DNA of 64,000 nt from Sphingobacteriia bacterium (GTDB lineage Bacteria > Bacteroidota > Bacteroidia > Chitinophagales > Chitinophagaceae), in the NCBI GenBank assembly GCA_031369485.1, contig JANMOT010000043.1, positions 1,595-65,594 of the forward strand. Reading direction: 5' to 3'. Shown piece after piece: positions 2,905-48,427 of the stretch. The notes beneath the pieces were generated by a model. That model saw only the letters and a program-made list of their open reading frames with translations, searched no databases and had not been told where the DNA came from. Within the stretch, counting starts at the first letter, position 1; every line of letters begins with the position of its first letter. The position numbers were made by a program, and so were the translations under genes.

Positions 2905-4008
2905 TTACACATTAAACCTAAAGTGCATGATGTCACCATCTTTTACCAAATATTCCTTTCCTTCAATCCGAAGTCGGCCATTATCGCGACAAGCAGCTTC
3001 GCTTTCGTATTTTACAAAGTCGTCGTATGCAATCACTTCAGCTTTGATAAAACCTTTTTCAAAATCGGTATGAATTACACTTGCAGCTTGTGGTGCTTTC
3101 CAACCTTTGTGAATAGTCCATGCACGAACTTCTTGTACTCCGGCGGTAAAATAAGTATCCAAATTCAATAGCTGGTAAGCAGTACGAATAAGTCTGTTTA
3201 GGGCAGGTTCGGTCATCTTATATTCTTCCATAAACATTTGCTTATCATCGGGTTGTTCCATCTCTGCAATCTGGGCTTCAATATTATTGCACATTACAAT
3301 TACTTCTGCGCCTTCGGCTGCTGCTATTTTTTTAAGAGCTTCTGAATATTTGTTGCCAGTATGCATATCTGCTTCGCCCACATTTGCAACATACAATACA
3401 GGCTTGTCTGTAAGCAAAAAAAGATCAGCGACTGCTGCTTTATCATCCTTACTCAAGCCGAGCGAATGAATGCTTTTTCCTGTGTCAAGATGGTTTTTAC
3501 AGCGTTGCAATATTTCGAATTCAGCTTTTGCTTTGGTATCAGAACCTACACGAGCCATTTTCTCTACCCTTTGCATTTTCTTCTCCACACTTTCTAAATC
3601 TTTCAACTGTAATTCGGTCTCAATAATTTCTTTGTCGCTAATAGGATTGATAGCACCTTCTTCCCTCAGTACATTCTCATCTTCAAAACAACGAATCACG
3701 TGTATGATGGCATCTACCTCACGAATATTACCCAAGAATTTATTGCCCAGTCCCTCACCTTTGCTTGCGCCTTTAACGAGGCCAGCAATATCTACAATTT
3801 CCATTTGGGTAGGGATGGTTTTATTGGGTTGAACCAATTGAGTTAGTTTATCTAACCTTTCATCAGGTACATCTACCAAGCCCACATTGGGCTCGATGGT
3901 ACAAAAACGGTAATTACTTGCCTGTGCTTTTGCACTATTGCTCACCGCATTAAAAAGGGTTGATTTTCCTACGTTTGGTAATCCTACTATGCCTGCTTGT
4001 AAAGCCAT
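2905..4008 (-). CDS. ychF: redox-regulated ATPase YchF
   Basis: MALQAGIVGLPNVGKSTLFNA P-loop. Length 367 aa. C-terminal TGS-like end (GDIMHFRFNV) typical of YchF/OLA1. Confidence 0.95.
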   Translation of the reverse strand: MALQAGIVGLPNVGKSTLFNAVSNSAKAQASNYRFCTIEPNVGLVDVPDERLDKLTQLVQPNKTIPTQMEIVDIAGLVKGASKGEGLGNKFLGNIREVDAIIHVIRCFEDENVLREEGAINPISDKEIIETELQLKDLESVEKKMQRVEKMARVGSDTKAKAEFEILQRCKNHLDTGKSIHSLGLSKDDKAAVADLFLLTDKPVLYVANVGEADMHTGNKYSEALKKIAAAEGAEVIVMCNNIEAQIAEMEQPDDKQMFMEEYKMTEPALNRLIRTAYQLLNLDTYFTAGVQEVRAWTIHKGWKAPQAASVIHTDFEKGFIKAEVIAYDDFVKYESEAACRDNGRLRIEGKEYLVKDGDIMHFRFNV

Positions 4009-4055
4009 TTTTTTGGTTTTGAGGCTGCGAAGGTAGTATTTCTTATCTTAGCTGC

Positions 4056-5315
4056 ATGGCACTCAATTATGTTTGGATCTTGTTTTTTTTAATCGGTCTC
4101 GTTATTGCGCTGTTTAAACTAATTGTATTTCAGGACTATGAAATATTTAAGAAGTTGGTGGAAGGCATTTTTGATGCCAGTAAAAGTTCTGTGATGGATA
4201 TTGCCCTTCCCTTAACTGGGGTAATGGTATTTTTTATGGGATTGATGAATATTGGCGAGAAAGCAGGAGCCATTAATTTTTTAGCTAGATTATTGAATCC
4301 ATTTATGAAGCGACTTTTTCCGGAAGTCCCTGATAAGCATCCTGCAATGGGGCAGATGGTGATGAATTTTAGTGCCAATATGTTGGGGCTCGACAATGCG
4401 GCAACCCCATTTGGACTAAAAGCTATGGAGAGTTTGCAAACCCTCAATCCCAATAAGGAGAGCGCCACCAATGCTCAGATCATGTTTCTTGTGTTGCATA
4501 CAAGTGGGCTCACCCTTATTCCGCTGTCTATTATTGCTTATAGAGCCGGGGCGGGCAGCACCAATCCTACCAGTGTATTTGTGCCATTGATGCTGGCCAC
4601 ATCGGTAGCTACCATTGCCAGCATTGTAATTACAGGTATGTATCAACGGTTGAAATTCGACCGAGTATTGATTACTTGGATTGGTGGAATTTCCTTGGTT
4701 ATTTTTTTATTTGCTTGGTTTATTCATTCGCTTCCTTCACAAAAAGACATTCCAGTACCCACTTTATTAACTAAGGAGACTTTCAGTAATGTGCTGGGTA
4801 ATATTATTTTATTTTTCATCATCTGTAGCTTTATTGTGGGAGGTTATGTGAAAAAAATTAATGTATTTGATGCATTTATAGAAGGTGCAAAACAGGGCTG
4901 GGATTTAATTGTAAAAATTATTCCCTATCTCGTAGGAATGTTGGTAGCAATAAGGGTATTTAGAGAGAGTGAGGCATTGGCAGCAATTATCAATGGCATC
5001 ACTTGGTGTTTTGGAGCAATTGGAGCCAGCAGTGAATTTGTACCTGCATTGCCAGTAGCCATTATGCGCCCATTTAGTGGGGGTGGATCGAGGGGACTTA
5101 TGTTAGATATTTTTAAAGTTCATGGTCCTGATGGTTTTATTGGTCAGTTGGCCAGCACATTCCAAGGCAGTGCTGATACTACTTTTTATATTATTGCGCT
5201 TTACTTTGGCAGCGTGGGTATTAAGAGAGTACGTTACGCCATTTGGGCGGGTATGTTGGCCGATTTAATTGGGGTGATTGCAGCAGTAGGTATTGCCTAT
5301 ATTTTTTTTAAATAA
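4056..5315 (+). CDS. nucleoside-recognition domain membrane protein (fused SpmA/SpmB-like)
   Basis: 419-aa polytopic membrane ORF. The N-terminus resembles SpmA (MALNYVWILFFLIGLVIA). Confidence 0.7.
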   Translation: MALNYVWILFFLIGLVIALFKLIVFQDYEIFKKLVEGIFDASKSSVMDIALPLTGVMVFFMGLMNIGEKAGAINFLARLLNPFMKRLFPEVPDKHPAMGQMVMNFSANMLGLDNAATPFGLKAMESLQTLNPNKESATNAQIMFLVLHTSGLTLIPLSIIAYRAGAGSTNPTSVFVPLMLATSVATIASIVITGMYQRLKFDRVLITWIGGISLVIFLFAWFIHSLPSQKDIPVPTLLTKETFSNVLGNIILFFIICSFIVGGYVKKINVFDAFIEGAKQGWDLIVKIIPYLVGMLVAIRVFRESEALAAIINGITWCFGAIGASSEFVPALPVAIMRPFSGGGSRGLMLDIFKVHGPDGFIGQLASTFQGSADTTFYIIALYFGSVGIKRVRYAIWAGMLADLIGVIAAVGIAYIFFK

Positions 5316-5339
5316 GCTTCACAGCTATTATTCAAGGCC

Positions 5340-5750
5340 TTATTTGGCTTCACTCATTGCCATTACCATATCCCACTCTTCAGCGGTTACGGGTTGAACT
5401 GAAAGTCTACCAAGCCTTACCAATGCCATATTGGCCAATTGTTTTTCTGCTTTAACCATGGCGAGAGATACGGGCTTTTTTAGTTTTTTAACGGGCTTAA
5501 AGTCCACCACTACCCACGCTGCTTCGGTGGTAGTAGGATCTTGGTAAAATTCTTTTACCACTTTGGCAATACCTACTATTTCCATACCCTCATTGCTATG
5601 GTACCAGAAAGCGAGATCCCCTTTTTTCATGGCTTTTAAATGGTTGCGAGCTAGATAATTTCTTACGCCATCCCAGAAAGTTTGTTTGTCTTTTTCAAAT
5701 TGATCCCAACTGTATTTAAAAGGTTCAGATTTAATTAACCAGTAGTTCAT
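5340..5750 (-). CDS. EVE (PUA-like) domain protein
   Basis: MNYWLIKSEPFKYSWDQF start and 136-aa size are typical of stand-alone EVE domain proteins. Confidence 0.7.
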   Translation of the reverse strand: MNYWLIKSEPFKYSWDQFEKDKQTFWDGVRNYLARNHLKAMKKGDLAFWYHSNEGMEIVGIAKVVKEFYQDPTTTEAAWVVVDFKPVKKLKKPVSLAMVKAEKQLANMALVRLGRLSVQPVTAEEWDMVMAMSEAK

Positions 5751-5781
5751 ATTTAATTATTTAAAATTGAAGCGTCAGCTT

Positions 5782-7074
5782 CTAAAAATTGTTGAATTTA
5801 ATTCCTTCCTGTTCCAGTATTTCCAAAACGGGATGGTAGATTTCTTTTACAATTGGAATATGCAATCCCCGAAGGGTAATTTTATTTTCCAGTAATAGGG
5901 TTGCAGCAATGCCCAATGGCAGTCCCACAGTTTTGGCCATGGCCGTATTGCGTTCATCATCGCCTTTAACAATCAAGCTGGTCTTTTCTATTTTTGATGC
6001 TCCATCTAATTTGAATTTAATTTCATGCAACATAACAACCAGATCTTTATCCCCCGGTTCTAGCTTCCATTTATTTTCTAATAATTGCTGAAACGCAGCA
6101 GAAATGGGTTGAATGCCTTTATTTATGAGTTGATGGTCACTTAGTCCCAGCCAGTCGAATTGGTATTTCAATAGATCCGATTGCAGCAATACTTCTTTTT
6201 GTTGCAATTGGCGTTCTATCATATTGGCATAGCTGGTTTTATTGGTGTCAATTAAGTCATCATCATTTGTTAGTCCCGCTTCTACTACTTTCTGCCAGCC
6301 CTTGCAAAAATCGGGGTACCTAAATGTAGCCCTCATAAAAGTAGCAGCAGATTCCAATCCATAAATAGGGATATAAGAGAGTGAATCGCGATTTGGGTAA
6401 TAAGCCAATTCTCCAACCCCTTCAATTTCTAAGGAAGAACAGTCTTTGAAAATAGCATTGTAATCTTTTTCAACTACTTGATAATTCTCCTTATAAATGG
6501 CACCAGCTTTGCCAGCTGTAACTATATTTCTAGGGTTCCAAGTGATTTTATATTGCCAAGGATTGGTATTGAATTCAGGTGCAATTAAACCGCCGCAAAA
6601 CGACTTAAATGAAGCAATAGAGCCGCCTTTTTCGTGAATTTCATCAATAAGCTGCATGGCACTCATATGGTCGATGCCAGGATCGAGCCCCATTTCTCCC
6701 AAAAACAGCAGGCCAGCATCGGCAATATCTTTAGCGAGGGACTGAATGGGTTGGTCAAGGTAAGACGCAGTGAGCAAGTGTTTGCGCAGCATTAGGCAAT
6801 CTTTGGCCACCAAAAAATGTAGGGCAGGAGGTAGGAGGGATATTACCACATCGGCAGTTTGAATTAGGGTACTGCGGGCATTATCGTCTTCAATTTCCAG
6901 TGCAACAGCGGTTAAATGTGGTGCGGTAGTTGTTTTCGAAAGGATATTGGACAAGTCCAAATCAGCGATGGTAAAATGCCATTGTTTTTCAAGGGTGGTT
7001 TTGGCCAAATATTGTATTAATACGGTCGCGGATTTACCAGCACCGAAAAGCAAAATACGAGGGACTTTCTCCAT
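5782..7074 (-). CDS. saccharopine dehydrogenase family protein
   Basis: Rossmann start ILLFGAGKSATVLIQYL. 430 aa with GEMGLDPGIDHM-type motif. Confidence 0.75.
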   Translation of the reverse strand: MEKVPRILLFGAGKSATVLIQYLAKTTLEKQWHFTIADLDLSNILSKTTTAPHLTAVALEIEDDNARSTLIQTADVVISLLPPALHFLVAKDCLMLRKHLLTASYLDQPIQSLAKDIADAGLLFLGEMGLDPGIDHMSAMQLIDEIHEKGGSIASFKSFCGGLIAPEFNTNPWQYKITWNPRNIVTAGKAGAIYKENYQVVEKDYNAIFKDCSSLEIEGVGELAYYPNRDSLSYIPIYGLESAATFMRATFRYPDFCKGWQKVVEAGLTNDDDLIDTNKTSYANMIERQLQQKEVLLQSDLLKYQFDWLGLSDHQLINKGIQPISAAFQQLLENKWKLEPGDKDLVVMLHEIKFKLDGASKIEKTSLIVKGDDERNTAMAKTVGLPLGIAATLLLENKITLRGLHIPIVKEIYHPVLEILEQEGIKFNNF

Positions 7075-7271: not shown

Positions 7272-9932
7272 ATGGAAGAAAATCAATTGCCAGAACAAAC
7301 CAGCGATAATGATCGCATCATACAGGTAAATATAGAGGAACAGATGAAGACCGCATATATTGACTATTCTATGTCGGTTATTGTGGGTCGTGCCTTACCC
7401 GATGTACGTGATGGGTTTAAGCCAGTACACCGCAGGGTGTTGTATGCTATGAGTGAGTTGGGCAATAGCAGCAATAAGCCATTTAAAAAGTCGGCACGTA
7501 TTGTTGGGGAAGTAATGGGTAAATACCATCCTCATGGAGATAGTGCTATTTATGATACATTGGTGCGTATGGCGCAGGAGTGGACTATGCGTTATACCTT
7601 GGTAGATCGGCAAGGTAATTTTGGAAACCAAGATGGGGATCCGCCAGCAGCTATGCGTTATACAGAAGCTCGTCTTCAGCGTATTGCAGAAGCCATGTTG
7701 GATGATATTGAGAAAGATACGGTGAATTTCCAGTTGAATTTTGATGACTCATTGGAAGAGCCAACCGTACTTCCTACTCGTATACCACAATTATTGGTAA
7801 ACGGTTCTTCGGGTATTGCAGTGGGTATGGCTACTAATATGATGCCACATAACTTGAGTGAAGTGATTGATGGTTGTGTTGCATATGTGGAAAACAGGGA
7901 GGTCACCATTGAAGAATTGATGAGCCATGTAAAAGCTCCAGATTTTCCGACTGGGGGTGTGATTTATGGAATGGAGGGCGTAAAACAAGCTTTGTTAACT
8001 GGTAGGGGTAAAGTGGTGGTTCGAGGTAAATGCAATGTAGAAACCAAGCCCAACGGTCGCGAAATGATTGTGATTACCGAAGTGCCTTATCAGGTGAGCC
8101 GCGATACCTTAACGGATCGGATAGGGCGATTGGCGATTGATAAAATTGTAGATGGAATTTCCGATGTGGGTAACCAAAGTAACAAAGATGGTACCCGTAT
8201 AGTGGTGGAACTGAAGAAAGATGCGGTTGCGCAGGTGGTGATTAACCAACTGTATAAGCATACCGAATTACAGACCAGTTATGGTATTAATAATGTTGCA
8301 TTGAGCAAGGGGCGTCCAAGAATTATGAACCTGCGTGATTTGGTGCGCGAGTTCATTGAATTTAGGATGGAAGTGGTGATCCGCCGTGCCAAATTTGAAT
8401 TGCGTAAGGCAGAAGAGCGGGCTCATATTTTAGAAGGATATTTGAAAGCATTGGATCACTTAGATGAAGTGATTGCGCTTATTCGTGCCAGCAGAACGCC
8501 TGATGAAGCCAAGGAGAGTTTGGTTAATAAAAGCAAGGAAGAAAAATGGTATCTTAACTCAGGTATGTTTTCTGAACTTACCAATGAACAGTATAGCCAG
8601 CAAGAAGGATTGTCGGAAATACAAGCAAAAGCTATTCTGGAATTGCGTTTACAGCGATTGACTGGAATGGAACGCGATAAAATTATTGAGGAATTTAATG
8701 GGTTGATTGAAACCATCAAAGGCTTGAAAGCTTTATTGGCAAGTGAAGACCTTCGATATGATCTCATTAAAAAAGAATTGCTGGAAGTAAAAGTGAAGTT
8801 TGGCGACGAGCGTAAAAGTGAAATTCAATACTTGGCAGATGAAATGCGTATTGAAGACCTGATAGAAGATGAAGACGTGGTAATTACCATATCACATTTA
8901 GGTTATATTAAAAGGACTTCTGCTACCGAATACCGCCAGCAGAAGCGTGGTGGAAGGGGTGCTGTTGGTTCTAAAACCCGTGAAGAAGATTATGTAGAGC
9001 ATTTGTTTATTGCCTCTACTCACGATACCATTATGTTTTTTACCGAAAAGGGAAGATGCTATTGGATGCGGGTTTACGAAATACCAGAAGGAGAGAAACA
9101 AAGCAAAGGAAGAGCCATTCAAAACCTGATTCAATTGCCTGGTGATGATAAGGTGAAAGCCATCATCAACGTGAAAAAAATTGATGATAAAGATTTCGTT
9201 CAGCAACACTATATAGTACTTTGTACCAAGCAGGGAATTATTAAAAAAACTTCATTAGAAGATTTTAGTAGACCAAGAGCCAATGGGGTGAATGCAATTA
9301 CCATTGTAGAGGGCGATGAGTTGTTAGAAGCGAGACTCACCAACGGTTCCAGCGAAATTATGATGGCGTTAAAAAGCGGTAGAGCCATTCGCTTTCCTGA
9401 AGTTAAAGTAAGGTCAACTGGTAGGGGTGCTATTGGGGTAGGTGGAATTGAAGTAGACGATAGTAAGGATGAAGTAGTAGGTATGATTTGTGTAAATAAG
9501 GAAGATCTTGAAAGAACCATATTGGTAGTAAGTGAAAAAGGATATGGTAAGCGAACAGCCATTGAAGATTACCGAATTACCAATAGGGGCGGCAAGGGTG
9601 TTAAAACCATTAATGTAACCGAGAAAACAGGAAATCTGGTAGGGATTTTGTATGTGAAAGAAACAGAGGATTTAATCATTACTTGTAAATCAGGAATCAC
9701 CATCAGAACAGGTATTCTAGCTATCCGTGAAGCGGGTAGGGCAACGCAGGGAGTGAAATTGATTCGACTGGATGATACGGATGAAATAGCAGCAATTTCT
9801 CAGATTGAGGACCAGACCGAAGATGAAAATCCGATAGCTGACATTGAAGCTGACACAACAGAATCAACCGATACCGATTCACCCAATACAACCGAAAATA
9901 CAACCGAAACAATAGAACCAAACAACGAATAA
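7272..9932 (+). CDS. gyrA: DNA gyrase subunit A
   Basis: Canonical GyrA N-terminus ([39 protein letters not shown]; active-site region [10 protein letters not shown]). C-terminal beta-pinwheel repeats and acidic tail. Confidence 0.97.
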
Positions 9933-9952
9933 AAACAATAAAAAATAAAGCC

Positions 9953-11320
9953 ATGAAACATTTTATTGCGGTATTACTGAGCATTTTCATCTTGAATATT
10001 GCTGTTGCACAAGATTACAAAAAAGTGCAGACCGTTTTATTACTTGAAAAAATTGAAGAAGCTAAAGTTGAAGTCGAGAAAGCACTTGCTGATCCTAAAA
10101 CAAAAGATAAAATAGAGGGCTGGTATTGGAAATCTAGAATTAATGCTGCCATCTACAAAAATGAAACATTGCGTGCAAAGTATCCAACCATTTTTGAAGA
10201 TGCCAATGCTGCATTTAAAAAGTACGTAGAACTAGATCCTAGTTATTCATTTGTAAAAGAAAAGGGAGCAGAAGGTTTTTTTGATATCTACTCAACTTCA
10301 TTTGGTAAAGGCATTGAAAGTTTTAAAACAAAGAACTGGCCAGATGCAACAAAGGCTTTTGAGTCAGCCGTTTATTATAGCGATTATATATTTAAAAATA
10401 AATGGTCCAGCTCTACTGCCATCTTTGATACTACTTCTATTCTTTATTGTGCTTATTCATTTCAAAATGCACAGAAAATGGATGAAGCTTCAAAATATTA
10501 TACTCGGCTAGCTGATCGCAAAGTAACAGGTGAGGGATTTGCAGATATTTATAAATTTCTAGTTGATCATTATACCAAATCAAAGAATAAGACTGCTTTT
10601 GAGAATTATCTCGCAATTGGTAAAGAAGTGTATCCTAAAGAAAATTGGGAAGATTTTGAGATTGAATACATTGATCAGAATTTTGACCTAGCCCAAAAAA
10701 CGGCTATTTATGATGAAAGAAATGCAGCTGGTACGCTTTCAGAAAATATGTATTTGCAATTTGGTGACGCTTTTGTAAACGCAAAACACAAAGAAGGGGT
10801 AGATAGTTCTTTACACGACAGCTATACCCAAAAAGCCATTGAGGCATTTAAAAAAGCGTACGGAAAAAATTCACAAAATGCACTGGCAGCTTATAATGCA
10901 GGCATCATTTATTACAACTACTTTAATTTGGATGATGATAAATTTGCCGAGAATATTAAAAAATTACAACAAATAAATGCCAACAAGCCTGTAGTGAAAG
11001 ATCCAAAGAAAAAAGCTGCTGCCGATGCAGAGCAAAAGGTGAAAGTTGATGCCATTAAATCAGCAAATGCAGTTGTAGAAAAAGCAGCAATTGAAAATGT
11101 AGATATAGCTATTGACTGGTTAACAAAGTCTTACCTAATTTTAAAAGACAAATCTCCCCGTTCTAATACCGAAAAAAGTGTAATTAATAAATCAGTGGAT
11201 TTTATTACCAACCTATATAATTATAAAATGGGTCGTGTTAGAGGTAAAGACCCCAAAGCTTTTGATTTATTAGAAGCCAAGTACAAGGAATTTGATGCTT
11301 TGCACGGTACTTTTAAGTAA
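9953..11320 (+). CDS. secreted helical-repeat (TPR-like) hypothetical protein
   Basis: Signal peptide MKHFIAVLLSIFILNIAVAQ. Lys/Ala-rich helical sequence. Starts 20 nt after gyrA on the same strand. Confidence 0.6.
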   Translation: MKHFIAVLLSIFILNIAVAQDYKKVQTVLLLEKIEEAKVEVEKALADPKTKDKIEGWYWKSRINAAIYKNETLRAKYPTIFEDANAAFKKYVELDPSYSFVKEKGAEGFFDIYSTSFGKGIESFKTKNWPDATKAFESAVYYSDYIFKNKWSSSTAIFDTTSILYCAYSFQNAQKMDEASKYYTRLADRKVTGEGFADIYKFLVDHYTKSKNKTAFENYLAIGKEVYPKENWEDFEIEYIDQNFDLAQKTAIYDERNAAGTLSENMYLQFGDAFVNAKHKEGVDSSLHDSYTQKAIEAFKKAYGKNSQNALAAYNAGIIYYNYFNLDDDKFAENIKKLQQINANKPVVKDPKKKAAADAEQKVKVDAIKSANAVVEKAAIENVDIAIDWLTKSYLILKDKSPRSNTEKSVINKSVDFITNLYNYKMGRVRGKDPKAFDLLEAKYKEFDALHGTFK

Positions 11321-42012: not shown

Positions 42013-42089
42013 GGCTGCGTAGCTCAACTGAATAGAGCATCTGACTACGGATCAGAAGGTTTTAGGTTTGAATCCTAACGCGGTCACCA
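42013..42089 (+). tRNA. tRNA-Arg (anticodon ACG), CCA encoded
   Basis: Hand-folded cloverleaf. Acceptor GGCTGCG/CGCGGTC (two G-U pairs). D arm GCTC-AACTGAATA-GAGC. Anticodon arm TCTGA-CTACGGA-TCAGA. Variable loop AGGTT. T arm TTAGG-TTTGAAT-CCTAA. Discriminator A followed by CCA. Confidence 0.9.
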
Positions 42090-42098
42090 CACAGGACT

Positions 42099-42129
42099 GA
42101 GCAGCATTTTTGCTGCTCTTTTCTTTTTT
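42099..42129 (+). terminator. intrinsic terminator after tRNA-Arg
   Basis: 8-bp stem GAGCAGCA/TGCTGCTC with a TTTT loop, followed by TTTTCTTTTTT. Confidence 0.8.
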
Positions 42130-42130
42130 A

Positions 42131-42549
42131 CAATCGCTGAAACCATTGCCACCATTGCATAGCAGGTCAAGTACCTCACTCGGCTGCATGGTTTGAAAAG
42201 TATTGTTATTATAAACCAGTTTTTCAGGGAATATCAAACCAAGCATTTTCTGCCGATTTTCTATGTTAGCAGCCCGGTAATATTGGTCCATATTACTCTG
42301 TAGGGATAAACCATACCGATAGTATTCCTGAAATCCGCTTTCAGCGGCTTTCAGTTCCGCAATCTGGCTTCTCAGTTCAGTACACTCTCTTGACAGACTT
42401 TCCTTTATTCGTTTATATTTGATGAAGAAATTGTTTTTAATAACCTTAACCAACAAGCTGTCAAAACAATGCGTAAGGTTAAGGCAGATATAAGTAAGAT
42501 TATTTTGATGATGAAGGCTTACTGCTTCAAGCGAAAAGAAGTAGAGCAA
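42131..42549 (-). pseudogene. C-terminal remnant of a large serine recombinase
   Basis: The segment KYKRIKESL...RSQIAELK...YYRYGLSLQSNMDQYYRAANIENRQKMLGLIFPEKLVYNNNTFQTMQPSEVLDLL resembles the C-terminal tail of Bacteroidota recombinase-family proteins. The resolvase catalytic and recombinase domains are absent. The track ORF runs on through the terminator and tRNA, which cannot be coding. Confidence 0.55.
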
Positions 42550-42550
42550 T

Positions 42551-42558
42551 TAATTTTG
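42551..42558 (+). promoter_or_regulatory. -7-type box upstream of the nuclease gene pair
   Basis: TAATTTTG matches TAnnTTTG and lies 22 nt upstream of the ATG at 42581. No clear -33 element. Confidence 0.3.
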
Positions 42559-42580
42559 AACAAGCTAAAAGAAAACGAGA

Positions 42581-43003
42581 ATGGCCAAAGCAAAGAAAGA
42601 AGTTAGTGTTAGAAAATCAGGATACAACACAGGAACGGCAAGTGAGTTTTTAGTACTGAGCAATCTTTACAGGTTAGGAGTAAATGCTTTTATTAGCTTG
42701 GGTAATAAAAAAAGTATTGACCTTATTATCAAAGCAAAAAATGGTTCATCTCTATCGGTTGATGTAAAGTCAGTGCAGGGATATAGTTCCATTGTGGTTA
42801 ATAATGTGAAGGCAGCAGCAAATCATTTCATTGTGGTGGTAGTGTATAGAAACAAGTTTGCTGACCCAACGGTATTACCTGATTTCTACATTATCCCTTC
42901 TGATAATGTTGCTGGCCTGTCGGAGAACTATAAGGGTCAGTTGAGGCTTTTAAAGGGCAGCATTGTCAGCTATCAAGACAAATGGAAGCCCTTACAGTTA
43001 TAA
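42581..43003 (+). CDS. small PD-(D/E)xK nuclease-fold protein (PDDEXK_5-like)
   Basis: GTASEFLVLSNLYRLGVNAFISLGNKKSIDLIIKAKNGSSLSVDVKS gives the E ... D ... (D/E)xK order, with a core beta-strand pattern like small group-I-intron-type endonucleases. The assignment rests on motifs only. Confidence 0.55.
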   Translation: MAKAKKEVSVRKSGYNTGTASEFLVLSNLYRLGVNAFISLGNKKSIDLIIKAKNGSSLSVDVKSVQGYSSIVVNNVKAAANHFIVVVVYRNKFADPTVLPDFYIIPSDNVAGLSENYKGQLRLLKGSIVSYQDKWKPLQL

Positions 43004-43019
43004 TTAAGATTGTAAATAA

Positions 43020-43691
43020 ATGAGTGCAACCATAGCAAAAGCAAAGGATATTTTAACAGGCAGAATTTTTCATATAGATAATGTTGATAAAACTATAAAG
43101 GCAGAATTTGAATGTTGTGAATGCAAGCAAAAACTATCACCGGTTAAAACAGAAGTAAGGGGCAAAGACTGGCATTTCAGACATCTGCAAACTACTGATA
43201 TAGCAAAATGCAGAAGTACAGCCTTACATGATTTTGCAGTACAGATATTAATGGAAAATGCAGCTATCTCAATTTCAAAGAAATTGCAAATAGCTTACAG
43301 TGACCCAAGAAAGGAAATTACTGTTTTTGGCAAGCGGTCGGATGTAACAGTTAAATATGAAAATGAAGATGTACACTTTGAGGTTTTTGTAACCCATGAT
43401 TTGGACAATGAAAAGATTGGTATTTACAAAGACAATAAAGTAAAATGTGTGAGAATTGATTTGAGTGAACCGGTGTTGTTAACGGCATCCCCGGAGAAAA
43501 TTAAAGAGGCGGTTCTAAATCAGTATAAAAACAAAACGGTTGTTTATTGGCAGGATGAAATAGTAAAGCCTCACGAATCAAATGAGCCGGATTTTGGATT
43601 TAAACATTTACTATTATTAGCAGGGGCATTTATCGGGTTAAGGTTTCTTTACAATCGTTTCTTTAAGCCAAAAAGACGAAATTTGCGGTAG
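43020..43691 (+). CDS. CoiA-like nuclease-family protein with C-terminal membrane anchor
   Basis: FECCECKQKL...DWHFRH (Cys pair plus HFxH), then RSDVTV...VHFEVFV, as in the CoiA-like family. C-terminal hydrophobic helix HLLLLAGAFIGLRFLY and basic tail KPKRRNLR. Starts 16 nt after the preceding gene. Confidence 0.5.
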   Translation: MSATIAKAKDILTGRIFHIDNVDKTIKAEFECCECKQKLSPVKTEVRGKDWHFRHLQTTDIAKCRSTALHDFAVQILMENAAISISKKLQIAYSDPRKEITVFGKRSDVTVKYENEDVHFEVFVTHDLDNEKIGIYKDNKVKCVRIDLSEPVLLTASPEKIKEAVLNQYKNKTVVYWQDEIVKPHESNEPDFGFKHLLLLAGAFIGLRFLYNRFFKPKRRNLR

Positions 43692-44120
43692 TTGTTAAAT
43701 ATAAATAGATATGTCCAGTCTTTACATAGATGAAAGTTACCACTTGGAACATGATGGGAAGCCTGTTATGTGTATTGGCTGGAATAAAGGGCAAAAAACC
43801 CCCACTTCGTAAGTGAGGAACGCAACTTTAGGCATTGCGGTTGAGTGGACAAGCCACCTACCAGTGCCTTTACTCTTTGAGTAATGCATCACAAATATAT
43901 GGGTTGTTTTGAGAAAACGAAGTCAATTCCGCAATCTAAATAGTTTTTTGTATAATCCGGTGAAGCTGACCACCAATCCGGCTATTGTGACCTAAAAACA
44001 ATTTTAGATAGAATAATGAACCCTGCATCCCATGCCACGGGGGAAACTATGTATGCAAAAGAATTAGTTGTAAGTTGCTAAAAATTATCATCCAAAAGCT
44101 GTTTTAACGTATCTAAATCG

Positions 44121-44196
44121 TTATCAATTATTTGTATTTACTTAGGTATTCGAATTTGCAATATTTACTTTTTCAAGTATTGATTATCAATTATTT
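44121..44196 (+). repeat. paired direct repeats upstream of the HipA-like kinase gene
   Basis: The 13-mer TTATCAATTATTT occurs at 44121-44133 and 44184-44196. The 9-mer TATTTACTT occurs at 44135-44143 and 44162-44170. The order is A-B ... B-A, and the block ends 75 nt before the ATG at 44271. Confidence 0.6.
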
Positions 44197-44270
44197 AAAC
44201 CACCTGAGTAGTTACAAAGAATTAAAAACATTTTTAGATGCTAAAAAAACAGCAGCATAATTATTAATAA

Positions 44271-45080
44271 ATGATAAAAAACGTACAATCCATAGAGCAG
44301 GTAGAAAAGGTATTTGATACAGGCGATAAGCCCATATTAATACACTGTACCGACTTGGAATTTTATGTAAGCAAATACAACAGCACAGCAGGTACGGCAA
44401 ACTTATTGTTTAGAGAATTTATGACTTCATCCTTTTTAAAAATTTGGGGTTTACAAGTACCCGATTTTGCAATTGTTGCTTTACAACCACATCATAACCC
44501 TGCAAATGGCAGGTATATAAACAATGCCATGCCCTGCTTTGGTTCTATGTACAATAATGAATACAGGGAGTTAGATGCTTTTATAAACGAAGTTTCGCCA
44601 GCACAACGGCAAAGATTTAATACCACTTTCGATTTATTAAAAATAACCCTGTTTGATTATTGGGTTTCCAACGAAGATAGAAACCACAATAATTATAATT
44701 TGATGCTTAAAATGGAAGATAAGAGCTATAAATTTGTACCAATAGACGGTGGAGCCGTATTTCACACAGGCAATCAAAATAGGGAAAATTATACACTTTC
44801 CATAGAAGAAAGCCTTATTTCCAGCCCATTATTTCAAAACCTCATCATTGCAGAAACCAGTTTTAACGCCGAAATAATAGCAAATCTTAAAGAAATCTAC
44901 TACTTTTGCATTCAGAGTTGTAAGTCTCAATTACAAAATATAATTAACGATGTTCCAGAAGAGTGGCAAATAAACAAACCAGCAGAAGCAATAAATTTAG
45001 ATGTTTTTCTATTTAACACTAATTGGATAGAAGAATGTTGGACAACTTTTTTAGAGCATTTACACAACTCAGGCATTTAA
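44271..45080 (+). CDS. HipA-like serine/threonine kinase family protein
   Basis: Catalytic-loop-like DYWVSNEDRNHNNYNLM, followed by FVPIDGG (DxG) and N-lobe LEFYVSKY. 269 aa. Confidence 0.7.
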   Translation: MIKNVQSIEQVEKVFDTGDKPILIHCTDLEFYVSKYNSTAGTANLLFREFMTSSFLKIWGLQVPDFAIVALQPHHNPANGRYINNAMPCFGSMYNNEYRELDAFINEVSPAQRQRFNTTFDLLKITLFDYWVSNEDRNHNNYNLMLKMEDKSYKFVPIDGGAVFHTGNQNRENYTLSIEESLISSPLFQNLIIAETSFNAEIIANLKEIYYFCIQSCKSQLQNIINDVPEEWQINKPAEAINLDVFLFNTNWIEECWTTFLEHLHNSGI

Positions 45081-45082
45081 TA

Positions 45083-45913
45083 ATGACAACTCAATATAGT
45101 ATATTATCGGTTTTAATACGACCAGAAATACAGGAAAAAATCACTATTGGTTTTTTGCTAATAAATGGTAACGAGGTATTTTTTGATTACTCTAAGCACA
45201 AATTAGGAGTAGCCAAAAATCTATTATCAGCCAATGCCTATAATTCATTAAAAGATGCCATTCACAATATTAACGCTACAGCCAATAATTATAAACATAA
45301 TACAACAAGCGATACACCCAGTAAAATAAATTCTTTTTCTGTAACATACATTGAATACCTAAGCAGATATAACAATAATATTTTATCTTTTACTGCTTTA
45401 AAATCTATTGAAGTATCAGCCAATTTAGAAGTATTTACAAAGCTGTTTCATAAGTTTATTGATAATACAATTGCACCAGTAAAGAAAACTTTCGTTTCCG
45501 AAATTCAGAAATTTAAAAAAGAAAAGAAGGTTGAATTATCTAAGCATTTTAATATTGATAAGAAAATAACACCCAACGAAATCGAAGGCCTTATTGTTCC
45601 TGTATCAGTTACTTTAATTGGTCAAAATGAAGTTCCCGCATTTGTACAAACTTTAGATTTAGAACGTAGTACATCTTATTTAATAAAAGACATTTCGGAA
45701 ATACTTTTTTTACAAAAAGCATTTGTTAGTACCCATTTACAAAGTGTGGCAATGGCTATTACAAACGAACCTAATAAAAATAAGTACCCAGAGCAACATG
45801 ATATTTGGGAGCAACTACGCAATACTAAAGACATTTTGCATTACGATATTAGCGATGCAGATGCAGTAATAGAATATGCCGTTGAGCATAATGTTCATCC
45901 ATTCATAAAGTAA
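45083..45913 (+). CDS. DUF3037-like protein
   Basis: The ATG at 45083 lies 2 nt after the kinase stop. The N-terminus YSILSVLIRPEIQEKITIGFLLINGNEVFF matches my recollection of the DUF3037 opening (YSVLRYVPD...GEFVNVGVVL). The track's longer start (45023) would overlap the kinase gene by 58 nt. Confidence 0.65.
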   Translation: MTTQYSILSVLIRPEIQEKITIGFLLINGNEVFFDYSKHKLGVAKNLLSANAYNSLKDAIHNINATANNYKHNTTSDTPSKINSFSVTYIEYLSRYNNNILSFTALKSIEVSANLEVFTKLFHKFIDNTIAPVKKTFVSEIQKFKKEKKVELSKHFNIDKKITPNEIEGLIVPVSVTLIGQNEVPAFVQTLDLERSTSYLIKDISEILFLQKAFVSTHLQSVAMAITNEPNKNKYPEQHDIWEQLRNTKDILHYDISDADAVIEYAVEHNVHPFIK

Positions 45914-46030
45914 CGTTTACCCAATCCACCGCATAGAATACTGCTTATGTAAAAAAATCATACAAAGATTACAAGGTTGGTATTGTATACCGTTAGACTT
46001 GCATACCCTGCAACAACCATTTATTGCATA

Positions 46031-48427
46031 TTACTCCAATAATTTTACCATCCTTATCATCTTACCTTCTGAATTTATACCTTCTACTACCACTTGTAAT
46101 TTTTTAGATACATCGTTATTGTAAAACTCAATTTTATAACGAGGCGATTTTTTATTCGTCAGTATATACGGATTCCAATACAAAGTAGACCTTGAATCTA
46201 GGTCATAGCTTATACTCCCCTTTTCATATATAGGATTGTAAAATTCTTTAAATCTTGAATAACCGCCCAAAAAAGTACTCTCCATGCCTTTTACATTTTG
46301 GTTGCCCTTACTATTACCCTCCCCTCCTTTTTTGGTATAAATTACAATGGCACCTCCACCGCCGCCACCGCCACTTCCAAAAAAAGGAGGTCTAAAAACT
46401 TTCACATATGCTATATCATTAATTGGAAGCGATGAAACCATAGAAACATCAGATCGCATTTCATTCAAATACAAATCAGGTGCCTGACCCCTCCAATTTA
46501 AAGTTGCTGATGCTCCCATCCCATTAATTTGCAAGCCAGCAACCCTACCTTGTAAATAAGTTAATATATCCATGGCCGCTATGGCTCCATCGGTCAAATC
46601 AAAACTATAACCATCACCTCTCGAAAACAATCCACTGGCATAAGTCTCATCCAATATTTCAGTCTTACTCTTTGTTTTAGCTCTCACAATTACTTCAGAT
46701 AAAGTTGTAGAAGCAATCAACTTTCTGAGTCGCTCTTGCTCAGACAAAAAATAATTCAGTTTTACAATAGAGAGACTATCTACACCCGCCCATACTGATG
46801 GTAGTATAGGATAATTGTATTTTGCACTTGGCTCTTTTCTCAACAAACCATTGTCTACTTTTACTTGTGCGCCGCTGGTTAGTTTAGACTTACTATTGAA
46901 ATTATAATATACTTTAACTGTATCGTAAAAAAATAGTCCTGACTGTTCAAAACTTCCATCTGGATTTACACTAGCAAAAACCATATTTTTACTGCTGTCT
47001 TTTGCTGCTAAAATAAAATTCAGTTGCAGATCACCTGCATTCTTTGCTCCAAACACATTTCCCTTAAGCGATAAATAGCCTTGCTCTGGCATATACTTTA
47101 GTTGGGGACCAATACCTGCTCTTAATTTTTCCCAATTGAACTTACGCCAACCATTGGTCATCATCACCAAATCTAATCGACTGGTAATGCTATCGGCGTC
47201 ACTGGTAAAATAATAAGCAGGGTTGTGAATATATCCTCGCAATTCATTACTCAATAAAAAATCTGAAAGAATAGTATGTTGATCTTTTGAAACGATACTA
47301 GCATCGGTAATGGAAACTGACATATTGGTCATGGCTGTGTCTGCCACCACAATTTCCAAAGAATTTTTTGCTCTTTTATCAAGACTTGTATAAATAGGAT
47401 TCACTTTTGCGTTGAATTCGTGCAAGTGATTGTTTACAAAAACAATTCGCTCTGCAACTGGTATCCAATCGGCGGTGAACAAAGAAAACTGAACGATTCC
47501 AGTAGGAAGTTCATCAATTGGAATCTCCGCACGCTGGAAGGTTTTTTCAGCCATGTTAACCGACACTTTATACAATATTTGTTGATTCATATGAACCAAT
47601 AAATTCATCTGCTTAAAAGATTCATTCACTTCTGCCGATCGCTCAATCATTAGAAATGCTTTTTCATTATTGGTTCTCACCGTTAATACAGCTCCTATTT
47701 TCTCTACGCCAGGAATTGGTGTTGTTCCTTTTACCCCAAATTCATCCGTCCAGTTTACCTGATACTGCAAACCTGGTATGGGTTTTAATAATATTATACC
47801 CATACCATCATGTACAGTTTTCAAGCTGTCTATAATGGTATTTTTATTGTCTACTAAATATCCTTTTATTTTAACTGGTAGTCCCGATTTATTAATCGCT
47901 TTAAATGCAATTCTAGATGCGCTTCCCGCTACCAACTTACCTCCTTCTGGAAAAAGCACCAATTGGGTAGGATCCTGAACTTTTTTATTCATAAAGATCC
48001 CCCGATTAATCGGAATATTTCTTTGATAAATAAAGGCGTCTTCATCATTCAGCATCCATCGGGTAAACGCTTTTACATGAAGAAAAGAACCACTGTAGCT
48101 GGACGGTATTTCAAAACTGCCTTTTGCGGTGGATTGGAATAAAGGCGCAACGGTTTGCTTTATCAATGCTCCCGTAGAATCGTACCACTCAACATATAAA
48201 TTTTTACTGAGGGGGCTCAATTCATTCACCGCAAGTAGGTATACTTTATACCAAACCGTATCTCCAATATTATACCTAGATCGATCAAAATGAATATGTA
48301 TTTTCTCTTTGGGGAAACCCTCGGCATAAGCCGTTATCATTGAATCTATTTGCTGGGCTTTACCAAAGCGAGTAATCAAGCAAAATAAAATCAAGAAAAA
48401 AAAATGAAAAGAGGATTTCATCGGCAC
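46031..48427 (-). CDS. secreted MG2/macroglobulin-like repeat protein with C-terminal TonB-receptor Plug-like domain
   Basis: Signal peptide. KIHIHFDRSRYNIGDTVWYKVYLL (MG2-like). C-terminal LQGRVAGLQING...VKVFRPPFFGSGGGGGGGAIVIYTKKG resembles a Plug domain. No beta-barrel follows. Confidence 0.55.
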   Translation of the reverse strand: MPMKSSFHFFFLILFCLITRFGKAQQIDSMITAYAEGFPKEKIHIHFDRSRYNIGDTVWYKVYLLAVNELSPLSKNLYVEWYDSTGALIKQTVAPLFQSTAKGSFEIPSSYSGSFLHVKAFTRWMLNDEDAFIYQRNIPINRGIFMNKKVQDPTQLVLFPEGGKLVAGSASRIAFKAINKSGLPVKIKGYLVDNKNTIIDSLKTVHDGMGIILLKPIPGLQYQVNWTDEFGVKGTTPIPGVEKIGAVLTVRTNNEKAFLMIERSAEVNESFKQMNLLVHMNQQILYKVSVNMAEKTFQRAEIPIDELPTGIVQFSLFTADWIPVAERIVFVNNHLHEFNAKVNPIYTSLDKRAKNSLEIVVADTAMTNMSVSITDASIVSKDQHTILSDFLLSNELRGYIHNPAYYFTSDADSITSRLDLVMMTNGWRKFNWEKLRAGIGPQLKYMPEQGYLSLKGNVFGAKNAGDLQLNFILAAKDSSKNMVFASVNPDGSFEQSGLFFYDTVKVYYNFNSKSKLTSGAQVKVDNGLLRKEPSAKYNYPILPSVWAGVDSLSIVKLNYFLSEQERLRKLIASTTLSEVIVRAKTKSKTEILDETYASGLFSRGDGYSFDLTDGAIAAMDILTYLQGRVAGLQINGMGASATLNWRGQAPDLYLNEMRSDVSMVSSLPINDIAYVKVFRPPFFGSGGGGGGGAIVIYTKKGGEGNSKGNQNVKGMESTFLGGYSRFKEFYNPIYEKGSISYDLDSRSTLYWNPYILTNKKSPRYKIEFYNNDVSKKLQVVVEGINSEGKMIRMVKLLE

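Follow-up and report, generated by a model that had tools for sequence, protein, structure and literature searches.

Two adjacent nuclease-type genes in an eroded defense island of a Sphingobacteriia bacterium, one with a predicted membrane anchor

This analysis concerns a pair of adjacent genes, called A and B here, in a stretch of 64,000 nucleotides (nt) from a Sphingobacteriia bacterium (GenBank assembly GCA_031369485.1, contig JANMOT010000043.1, positions 1,595 to 65,594 of the forward strand), referred to below as the window. An earlier note, made from the sequence alone, had proposed that the two genes may form a self-contained nuclease module for defense or exclusion. We favor another reading, to which we assign a probability of about 0.55: A and B would be two independent single-gene nuclease cassettes located, in a Chitinophagaceae-like (Bacteroidota) genome, in an eroded defense island next to a tRNA-Arg gene, A coding for an accessory endonuclease and B for a membrane-tethered, SNIPE-like nuclease. 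This reading builds on the folds of the two proteins, their conserved residues, the anchor feature of B, the island context, the purifying selection acting on both genes and the lack of obligate pairing between them.

Distribution of A and B and erosion of their locus

The two open reading frames (ORFs) of 140 and 223 amino acids (aa), both on the plus strand, the gap of 16 nt that separates them (43004-43019) and all the motifs quoted in the earlier note are present in the ORF list as it had claimed. Genome and metagenome scans gave 21 loci with a B relative, and profile hidden Markov models (HMMs) of both families were run on all ORFs of 35 loci. Only two of those 21 B loci have A as well, namely L001 (85% protein identity) and L003 (81%), and further look-ups of close relatives detected the A-B pair again in L038-L040. 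Within the 35 loci, to which L040 does not belong, the A family was found by HMM only in the pairs of L001, L003 and L038-L039 and in five A-only contexts. B was observed without A in L002, L004-L021 and L026-L031, as well as in L041 (by gene calls), and no B-family gene was detected near A by the profile HMMs in L022-L025 and L032-L035. Wherever the pair occurs, its DNA is 88-93% identical to that of the window, which indicates that the adjacency of A and B arose once. B relatives at 75-77% identity (L041 and L002) already lack A, and an A relative at 84% (P0079, L022) lacks B.

The borders of DNA similarity fall at single genes. The window resembles L002 over 43014-43684 only, which corresponds to B alone, and L022 over 42581-42993 only, which corresponds to A alone. 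L003 and L038 share exactly a 1.65-kilobase (kb) block, made up of a gene of 198/204 codons followed by A and B, and their flanks are unrelated. Elsewhere, A overlaps by 4 nt with a preceding HsdR or AAA_15 ATPase gene, or follows the gene of a 634-aa protein. B overlaps by 4 nt with a preceding Type III Res fragment or a 95-aa gene in some loci, and starts 0-3 nt after a DUF4276 gene or a 431-aa gene in others. A family of 633/634-aa proteins, with a sub-threshold match to NERD, is encountered before A in L022 (1413-3317) and after B in L009 (6705-8606), their kinship being judged from near-identical N-terminal sequences. The presence of this protein beside A and beside B in different loci shows that both draw on a shared pool of shuffled island cassettes. 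According to the similarity breakpoints, A and B are single-gene cassettes shuffled within islands. The self-contained pair of the earlier note is thus not supported: co-location is limited to one lineage, the block shared there holds three genes, and there is no obligate pairing across diverged lineages.

The locus of the window has been eroded on both sides of the pair. DNA similarity to L003 and L038-L040 begins abruptly at 42420/42421, inside the 198/204-aa gene, which in the relatives precedes A and overlaps its start. In the window about 140 codons of this gene have been lost, and tblastn aligned the remnant with residues 138-198 of the L003 protein (L003_198, 95% identity) and residues 150-204 of the L038 protein (L038_204, 85%). 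No family match was found for the 204-aa protein. In L001 the upstream truncation lies at a different place (~42534 in window numbering) and most of the 198/204-aa gene is seemingly missing. On the other side, positions 43777-43930 of the window match L041 sequence located after its 167-aa gene, beyond two genes that are deleted in the window. Comparison of the two sequences implies a deletion of about 1.1 kb in the window relative to L041, 3' of the remnant of a DUF3800 gene that in L041 comes after B.

The genes flanking the pair are hence truncated remnants on both sides, and A and B themselves are intact. Ratios of nonsynonymous to synonymous substitution rates (dN/dS) against relatives, A-only and B-only relatives included, are 0.09-0.13 for A and 0.16-0.28 for B. 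These values are well below 1 and indicate that both genes are maintained by selection. The other possibility raised in the earlier note, that the two genes are leftover cargo of a decayed element, is therefore borne out for the truncated neighbors only, A and B being intact and under purifying selection.

In L003, a metagenome-assembled genome, both genes look frameshifted (9561-10664): A has an altered C-terminus with DVK changed to DAK, and B is covered by two overlapping tblastn segments in different frames. Either decay or a long-read assembly error could account for this.

A promoter-like element accompanies the pair. The -7 box that the earlier note had placed before the two genes, TAATTTTG, is present and is kept in L001, L003 and L038; in the relatives it lies inside the coding sequence of the upstream gene. 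The bare pattern TANNTTTG has 66 matches in the window, fewer than the ~94 that chance would give, and is uninformative as such.

A as a minimal PD-(D/E)xK protein

A contains the motifs ASEF (E22), SIDLII (D47) and SVDVKS (D61-V-K63), with the spacing D-x13-DVK. Among 5.8 billion proteins searched, 108 relatives were found, most of them 130-142 aa long. An alignment of 26 homologues that reaches down to 38% identity shows no variation at E22, D47, D61 and K63, and the conserved motifs of A, like those of B, are beyond chance. In the AlphaFold2 model (predicted local distance difference test, pLDDT, 84.5), E22 is located in the first helix, D47 starts the strand 48-51 and D61-V-K63 lies in the strand 57-65. 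When this model was compared with the PDB by Foldseek, archaeal Holliday junction resolvases (Hjc), the homing endonuclease I-Ssp6803I and the methyl-dependent enzyme NhoI were retrieved with E values of 8e-5 to 8e-4 and template modeling (TM) scores of 0.5-0.6; the nuclease domain of SPARDA, PvuII and EcoRV appeared lower in the list. Match probabilities were 0.9-1.0, and 1.00 for Hjc, I-Ssp6803I, NhoI and the SPARDA nuclease.

Family models gave less. The Pfam model PDDEXK_5 matched A below its gathering threshold (13.9 versus 26.1 bits, E 0.057), PADLOC gave only a marginal match to PDC-S01, and NCBIfam gave no match for either A or B. Among phage protein families of unknown function, A matched phrog_29029 (E 4.6e-8), and no match to A was found in phage genome and plasmid records. 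No relationship between A and B was detected by hhalign. Profile searches of the PDB with the alignments of A and B yielded only spurious matches to de novo designed repeat proteins and were discarded.

Sequence and model together place A, as the earlier note had proposed, among the minimal PD-(D/E)xK proteins; it is predicted to be a DNA endonuclease with a structure of the Hjc / I-Ssp6803I / NhoI type. Like A, Hjc, I-Ssp6803I (Pfam PDDEXK_5) and the Type IV enzyme NhoI are single-domain PD-(D/E)xK proteins of about 120-155 aa, and they share with it the order of strands and helices, with E in helix 1, D in strand 2 and D/E-x-K in strand 3. A differs from them in sequence (10-22% identity only) and in its bacterial defense-island context, as opposed to archaeal recombination or an intron. 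By analogy with these proteins, A is probably a homodimer, and its structural neighbors suggest branched or modified DNA as its substrate. Since A sits in other genomes behind restriction or ATPase operons of various kinds, joined to their 3' ends, it is most likely an accessory DNA-cutting effector, that is, a small endonuclease that would serve restriction-type operons.

Domain layout, anchor and relatives of B

B carries a Cys pair (C32/C35) followed by WHFRH (51-55), RSDVTV (106-111) and HFEVFV (119-124). A first search returned 72 relatives of 205-260 aa. An exhaustive profile search, covering 1.84 billion cluster representatives, then assigned 4108 clusters at 50% identity to the family with E <=1e-3, and 1294 with E <=1e-10; the best 150 matches are mostly 205-260 aa long and aligned over their full length. 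Across 60 diverse members with identities down to 22%, no variation is seen at C32, C35, H55, H70, E99, D108 and E121, and K132 is nearly invariant as well. Putative catalytic residues are thus conserved in both families. Pfam covers the B family solely by N-terminal domains of unknown function, and PADLOC 2.0 does not include it. B had no match in phage genome records and only 10 distant matches (24-30% identity) in plasmid records.

The AlphaFold2 model of B (pLDDT 87, predicted TM score 0.76) comprises a zinc ribbon (residues 1-60), a core that begins with helix 61-79 carrying H70, an acidic disordered linker (177-193) and a final helix (194-215). The core follows the alpha-beta-beta-beta-alpha-beta order of PD-(D/E)xK enzymes, the helix with K132 being followed by the fourth strand. 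Its matches in the PDB are weak and almost all of them are PD-(D/E)xK nucleases, namely VC1899, Can2, Bax1, SfsA, RecU, Cas4, McrC and the influenza PA endonuclease. Among the predicted viral structures of BFVD, matches reached E values of 3e-7 to 1.5e-4, including one named 'Competence protein' (E 1.5e-4). The order H...E...D...E...K presumably resembles that of the His-containing variant of cap-snatching endonucleases.

At its C-terminus B has the hydrophobic stretch HLLLLAGAFIGLRFLY followed by KPKRRNLR. In 56 of the 60 members the most hydrophobic 17-mer is located in the last quarter of the protein and the tail behind it has 2-10 Lys/Arg and hardly any acidic residues. The anchor feature reported in the earlier note therefore holds, at the level of sequence, across the subfamily of B, and it is conserved though its sequence is not. 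No N-terminal signal sequence was found in B, which argues for a cytoplasmic catalytic domain. From model and alignment, B is predicted to be a membrane-anchored nuclease made of a zinc ribbon, then a PD-(D/E)xK core whose site reads His-Glu-Asp-Glu(-Lys), and a flexible acidic linker leading to the anchor. A is an unremarkable protein; B represents a form of predicted membrane-bound nuclease that is very widespread and uncharacterised.

B had been called CoiA-like, and its relatives bear the same label in UniRef and NCBI. CoiA is a cytosolic single-stranded DNA endonuclease with a small C2H2 zinc finger, an atypical PD-(D/E)xK site (in S. pneumoniae, D95 and E105) and an extended C-terminal region; it is a protein of Bacillota, other phyla using YraN (bioRxiv 10.1101/2024.02.06.579203). 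An earlier analysis had given it a PD-ExQ site (PMC1189080). CoiA and B agree in their N-terminal Cys2-His2 zinc ribbon and in what comes after it, a PD-(D/E)xK domain of atypical kind (a predicted one in B) whose Asp lies in strand 2 and whose Glu lies in strand 3. The CoiA_N model (PF25164) was matched by 20 of 27 and 36 of 60 B members (best E 3.2e-9), and DUF7830 by 27 of 27. Some relatives exceed the CoiA_N cut-off; B of the window reaches DUF7830 only, with 22 bits, below the cut-off of 27.5. The CoiA nuclease model PF06054 was matched by none of 27 + 60 + 10 B members, longer soluble relatives included. Those tried for this link were L020, L021, P0303 and others, and none of them had PF06054; nor did any of 120 listed homologues of an Acinetobacter protein to which NCBI gives the name 'competence protein CoiA family protein'. 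CoiA (COG4469) consists of CoiA_N (PF25164), CoiA_nuc (PF06054) and CoiA_C, whereas B has no CoiA_C domain and ends in the linker, the hydrophobic helix and the basic tail instead. B also has E-V-F where CoiA has E-x-Q, a predicted C-terminal anchor where CoiA is cytosolic, and a place in mobile defense islands of Bacteroidota where CoiA belongs to the competence regulon of Bacillota. The likeness claimed before thus stands for the zinc ribbon and the order of motifs and fails for the nuclease model and the ExQ signature. On sequence grounds B appears CoiA-like in layout only and is not a demonstrated member of the CoiA family.

A clear kinship was found with the Acinetobacter family (e.g. WP_067731786.1), which is homologous to residues 4-181 of B (hhalign probability 100, E 1e-44). 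It differs from B in having a soluble C-terminal domain of about 100 aa in place of the hydrophobic helix and tail, and it is likewise uncharacterised and devoid of a PF06054 match. A distant soluble relative of B from this family adjoins McrBC on a plasmid. Sequence comparison places B in a wider group, that of nucleases which share the CoiA_N zinc ribbon and whose C-termini are interchangeable.

Island context, possible roles and rival explanations

Known defense genes recur within ~5-10 kb of the A and B families in independent contexts. B genes are located in variable islands, close relatives being found in different places, and their neighbors include Septu PtuA/PtuB, MmeI-like restriction-modification (R-M) genes and DUF3800; a Type III-like Res helicase-nuclease with an integrase; a Type ISP enzyme with PLD nucleases; AAA_15 with DUF3696; and GmrSD, a TIR protein and a PIN-TPR-GreABC component. 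A has HsdR (Type I), MmeI-like R-M, AAA_15 ATPase, AbiEii, ApeA and HigB among its neighbors. In the window, as the earlier note had remarked, no methyltransferase, ATPase or helicase gene adjoins the pair; genes of these types do occur in the islands of close relatives.

Two further neighbors of B-family genes were observed. A 1685-aa ORF lies directly beside B in L009 (787-5844, minus strand) and L019 (931-5988, plus strand). The B proteins of these loci share only 56% and 33% identity with that of the window; the two ORFs have similar N-termini and the L019 protein matches Pfam AAA (E 1.4e-5). This protein could be a recurrent partner of B. In L016, the B-family gene is directly preceded by genes for a TIR-domain protein of 471 aa and a protein of 509 aa (3026-5974). 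This couple looks like a candidate SPARTA-type short-Argonaute system, the 509-aa protein being without a Pfam hit.

The coordinates of the locus are collected in Table 1. The low-GC stretch of the island lies at about 42200-46100, where the guanine-plus-cytosine (GC) content drops from ~0.39-0.41 to 0.29-0.36. An Rfam search found nothing beyond the tRNA, and no copy of the 3' end of the tRNA-Arg gene (att-like repeat) was found downstream. A 15-nt direct repeat, TCAGTTCCGCAATCT / TCAATTCCGCAATCT, at 42351-42365 and 43923-43937 flanks the unit formed by remnant, A, B and remnant; it may be due to chance. A minus-strand ORF of 165 aa (42052-42549) was set aside as probably spurious: it overlaps the tRNA, runs antisense to the remnant gene and has no family or plasmid match, and no sign emerged that it is what is left of a recombinase gene. 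Further along the same low-GC island, within 44271-45913, a 269-aa kinase of the HipA_2 type is encoded (Pfam HipA_2 E 2.8e-16; PADLOC candidate PDC-M66A E 6e-8; phrog_3162 E 1e-21). It is directly followed by a 296-aa ORF without family match, with which it probably forms a two-gene kinase system.

Table 1. Features of the A-B locus (coordinates of the window)
Feature	Coordinates	Strand	Description and basis
ORF A, 140 aa	42581..43003	+	Predicted minimal PD-(D/E)xK endonuclease (ORF list, alignment, AlphaFold2 model, Foldseek)
ORF A, catalytic codons	E22 42644-42646; D47 42719-42721; D61 42761-42763; K63 42767-42769	+	
ORF B, 223 aa	43020..43691	+	ORF list
ORF B, residues 1-60	43020..43199	+	CoiA_N/DUF7830-type zinc ribbon: C32, C35, H52, H55
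ORF B, residues 61-176	43200..43547	+	PD-(D/E)xK-like core (AlphaFold2 model, conservation, Foldseek, BFVD)
ORF B, core residues			H70 (helix 1), E99, D108, H119/E121 (strands), K132 (helix 2)
ORF B, residues 194-223	43599..43688	+	Hydrophobic helix 194-215 and basic tail; predicted membrane anchor
tRNA-Arg (ACG)	42013..42089	+	Left edge of the low-GC island (ARAGORN; Rfam tRNA 60.2 bits)
3' remnant of the 198/204-aa gene (last 55-61 codons)	42421..42603	+	tblastn, start of DNA similarity
TAATTTTG, Bacteroidota -7-like box	42551-42558	+	22 nt before the ATG of A; possible internal promoter
DUF3800 remnant, first 26 codons	43711..43788	+	tblastn with L041_233DUF3800 residues 1-26, 77% identity

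The proposed role of B is modeled on SNIPE (PD-lambda-1), a nuclease that sits in the membrane and cleaves phage DNA while it is being injected. SNIPE unites membrane-anchoring, DNA-binding and nuclease parts in one protein, as B is predicted to do, and both are found in defense contexts. SNIPE is built of an N-terminal transmembrane segment, DUF4041 and a GIY-YIG nuclease, whereas in B a zinc ribbon precedes the predicted PD-(D/E)xK core and the anchor is C-terminal. The two are unrelated in sequence, and neither PADLOC nor Pfam gave a match of B to the SNIPE domains; B would be a functional analogue only. When its transmembrane segment is removed, SNIPE becomes toxic and nucleoid-bound; the tether prevents self-cleavage (PMC13190303). 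A link between CoiA-type zinc ribbons and defense exists in PD-lambda-4B, a validated defense protein whose N-terminus matches the CoiA zinc ribbon (CoiA positions 1-63 by HHpred; PMC9519451; Vassallo et al. 2022). PD-lambda-4B works in a two-gene system with an AAA ATPase, and PADLOC gave no match of B to it.

For B, the nuclease activity, the substrate, the topology and the role in defense are predictions, as are activity, substrate and role for A. The zinc ribbon of B would bind nucleic acid, and the C-terminal helix with its basic tail would hold the enzyme at the inner membrane with the catalytic domain in the cytoplasm. The tether would keep the nuclease off the chromosome, and B would cut DNA that enters through the membrane, be it by phage injection, conjugation or transformation, self and non-self being told apart by spatial logic as in SNIPE. 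Because CoiA is a single-stranded DNA endonuclease, the target of B might, by analogy, be single-stranded DNA entering by conjugation or transformation. That the B family as a whole, with its thousands of clusters and proteins mostly of about 220 aa, represents a second, evolutionarily independent class of membrane-tethered immune nucleases, which cut foreign DNA crossing the membrane and discriminate by location, is a tentative proposal that we regard as possible and would not yet call probable.

Several observations weigh against the reading of A and B as independent cassettes of this kind. The structural support for the core of B is limited by its PDB matches (best Foldseek E 0.012, TM scores of 0.2-0.26), and PADLOC gives no match for the protein. 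The position two residues after E121 is hydrophobic (F/Y/V; E-V-F) and lacks the Lys or Gln of other sites; the nearly invariant K132 of the following helix may substitute for it. By the positive-inside rule, the acidic linker and the basic tail (43548-43688) predict the opposite topology. One of the A contexts, L032 from Chitinophaga cymbidii, shows no defense genes. Lastly, the region upstream has been truncated at no fewer than two different places (at 42421 in the window and ~42534 in L001), and A, B and the conserved promoter-like box have stayed together nonetheless, which fits some shared function.

This last point bears on the view that A and B are a true two-gene defense or exclusion module, for instance a soluble nuclease with a membrane-bound sensor or partner. 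The genes are on the same strand and 16 nt apart, the pair is kept in the window, L001, L003 and L038-L040, both members are under purifying selection, and pair and TAATTTTG box have outlasted the two truncations. We nevertheless consider such a module unlikely: the 88-93% DNA identity of all pairs points to a single origin, relatives outside this group (L041 and L002 for B, L022 for A) already have one gene without the other, no further co-location was found by HMM in the 35 loci, and similarity breaks at the borders of single genes. The exact 1.65-kb block common to L003 and L038 within unrelated flanks, in which the first gene overlaps the start of A, could instead mean that the unit was a three-gene cassette, now broken in the window, where only the end of that first gene is retained and A and B would be decaying leftovers. 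This is quite unlikely given that both genes are intact with dN/dS well below 1, also against A-only and B-only relatives, that each is found elsewhere without the 198/204-aa gene, most of which L001 seems to lack, and that the 204-aa protein has no family match hinting at a role.

The mobility of A and B could also be that of selfish, free-standing homing-type endonuclease genes, one or both of them inserting at the 3' ends of genes with no benefit to the host. The model of A does match I-Ssp6803I (E 1e-4, 20-22% identity) and its sequence the phage family phrog_29029, and the single-gene insertions with junctions of 0-4 nt behind HsdR, AAA_15, the DUF4276 gene and the Type III Res fragment would suit such elements. 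We hold this to be very unlikely, since neither gene was found in phage genome records nor A in plasmid records, B having just its 10 distant plasmid matches, no intron or intein context was seen, an anchor is not expected in a homing enzyme, and the island context matches that of defense genes. Still more improbable, to the point of being hardly credible, is that B takes the place of CoiA in Bacteroidota, with the resolution of transformation D-loops as its housekeeping role in recombination. Its CoiA_N-type zinc ribbon, the order of D (beta-2) and E (beta-3) and the database labels would agree with this, but PF06054 is never matched, CoiA_C is missing, the predicted anchor sets B apart from cytosolic CoiA, the B gene moves between variable islands, and CoiA is, according to the work cited above, a protein of Bacillota, with YraN in other phyla. 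The interpretation of A and B as separate cassettes of a defense island is thus the one that we retain.

The breakpoints at this locus show single-gene shuffling, and two nucleases encoded side by side in an island do not necessarily work as one system. Defense by a membrane-tethered nuclease that acts by location was shown, for SNIPE, only in 2026. If it is also true of B, the strategy would have evolved more than once, with a different fold and with the anchor at the opposite end, and would be common in Bacteroidota; the B family would then provide a compact new tool for studying the entry of DNA.

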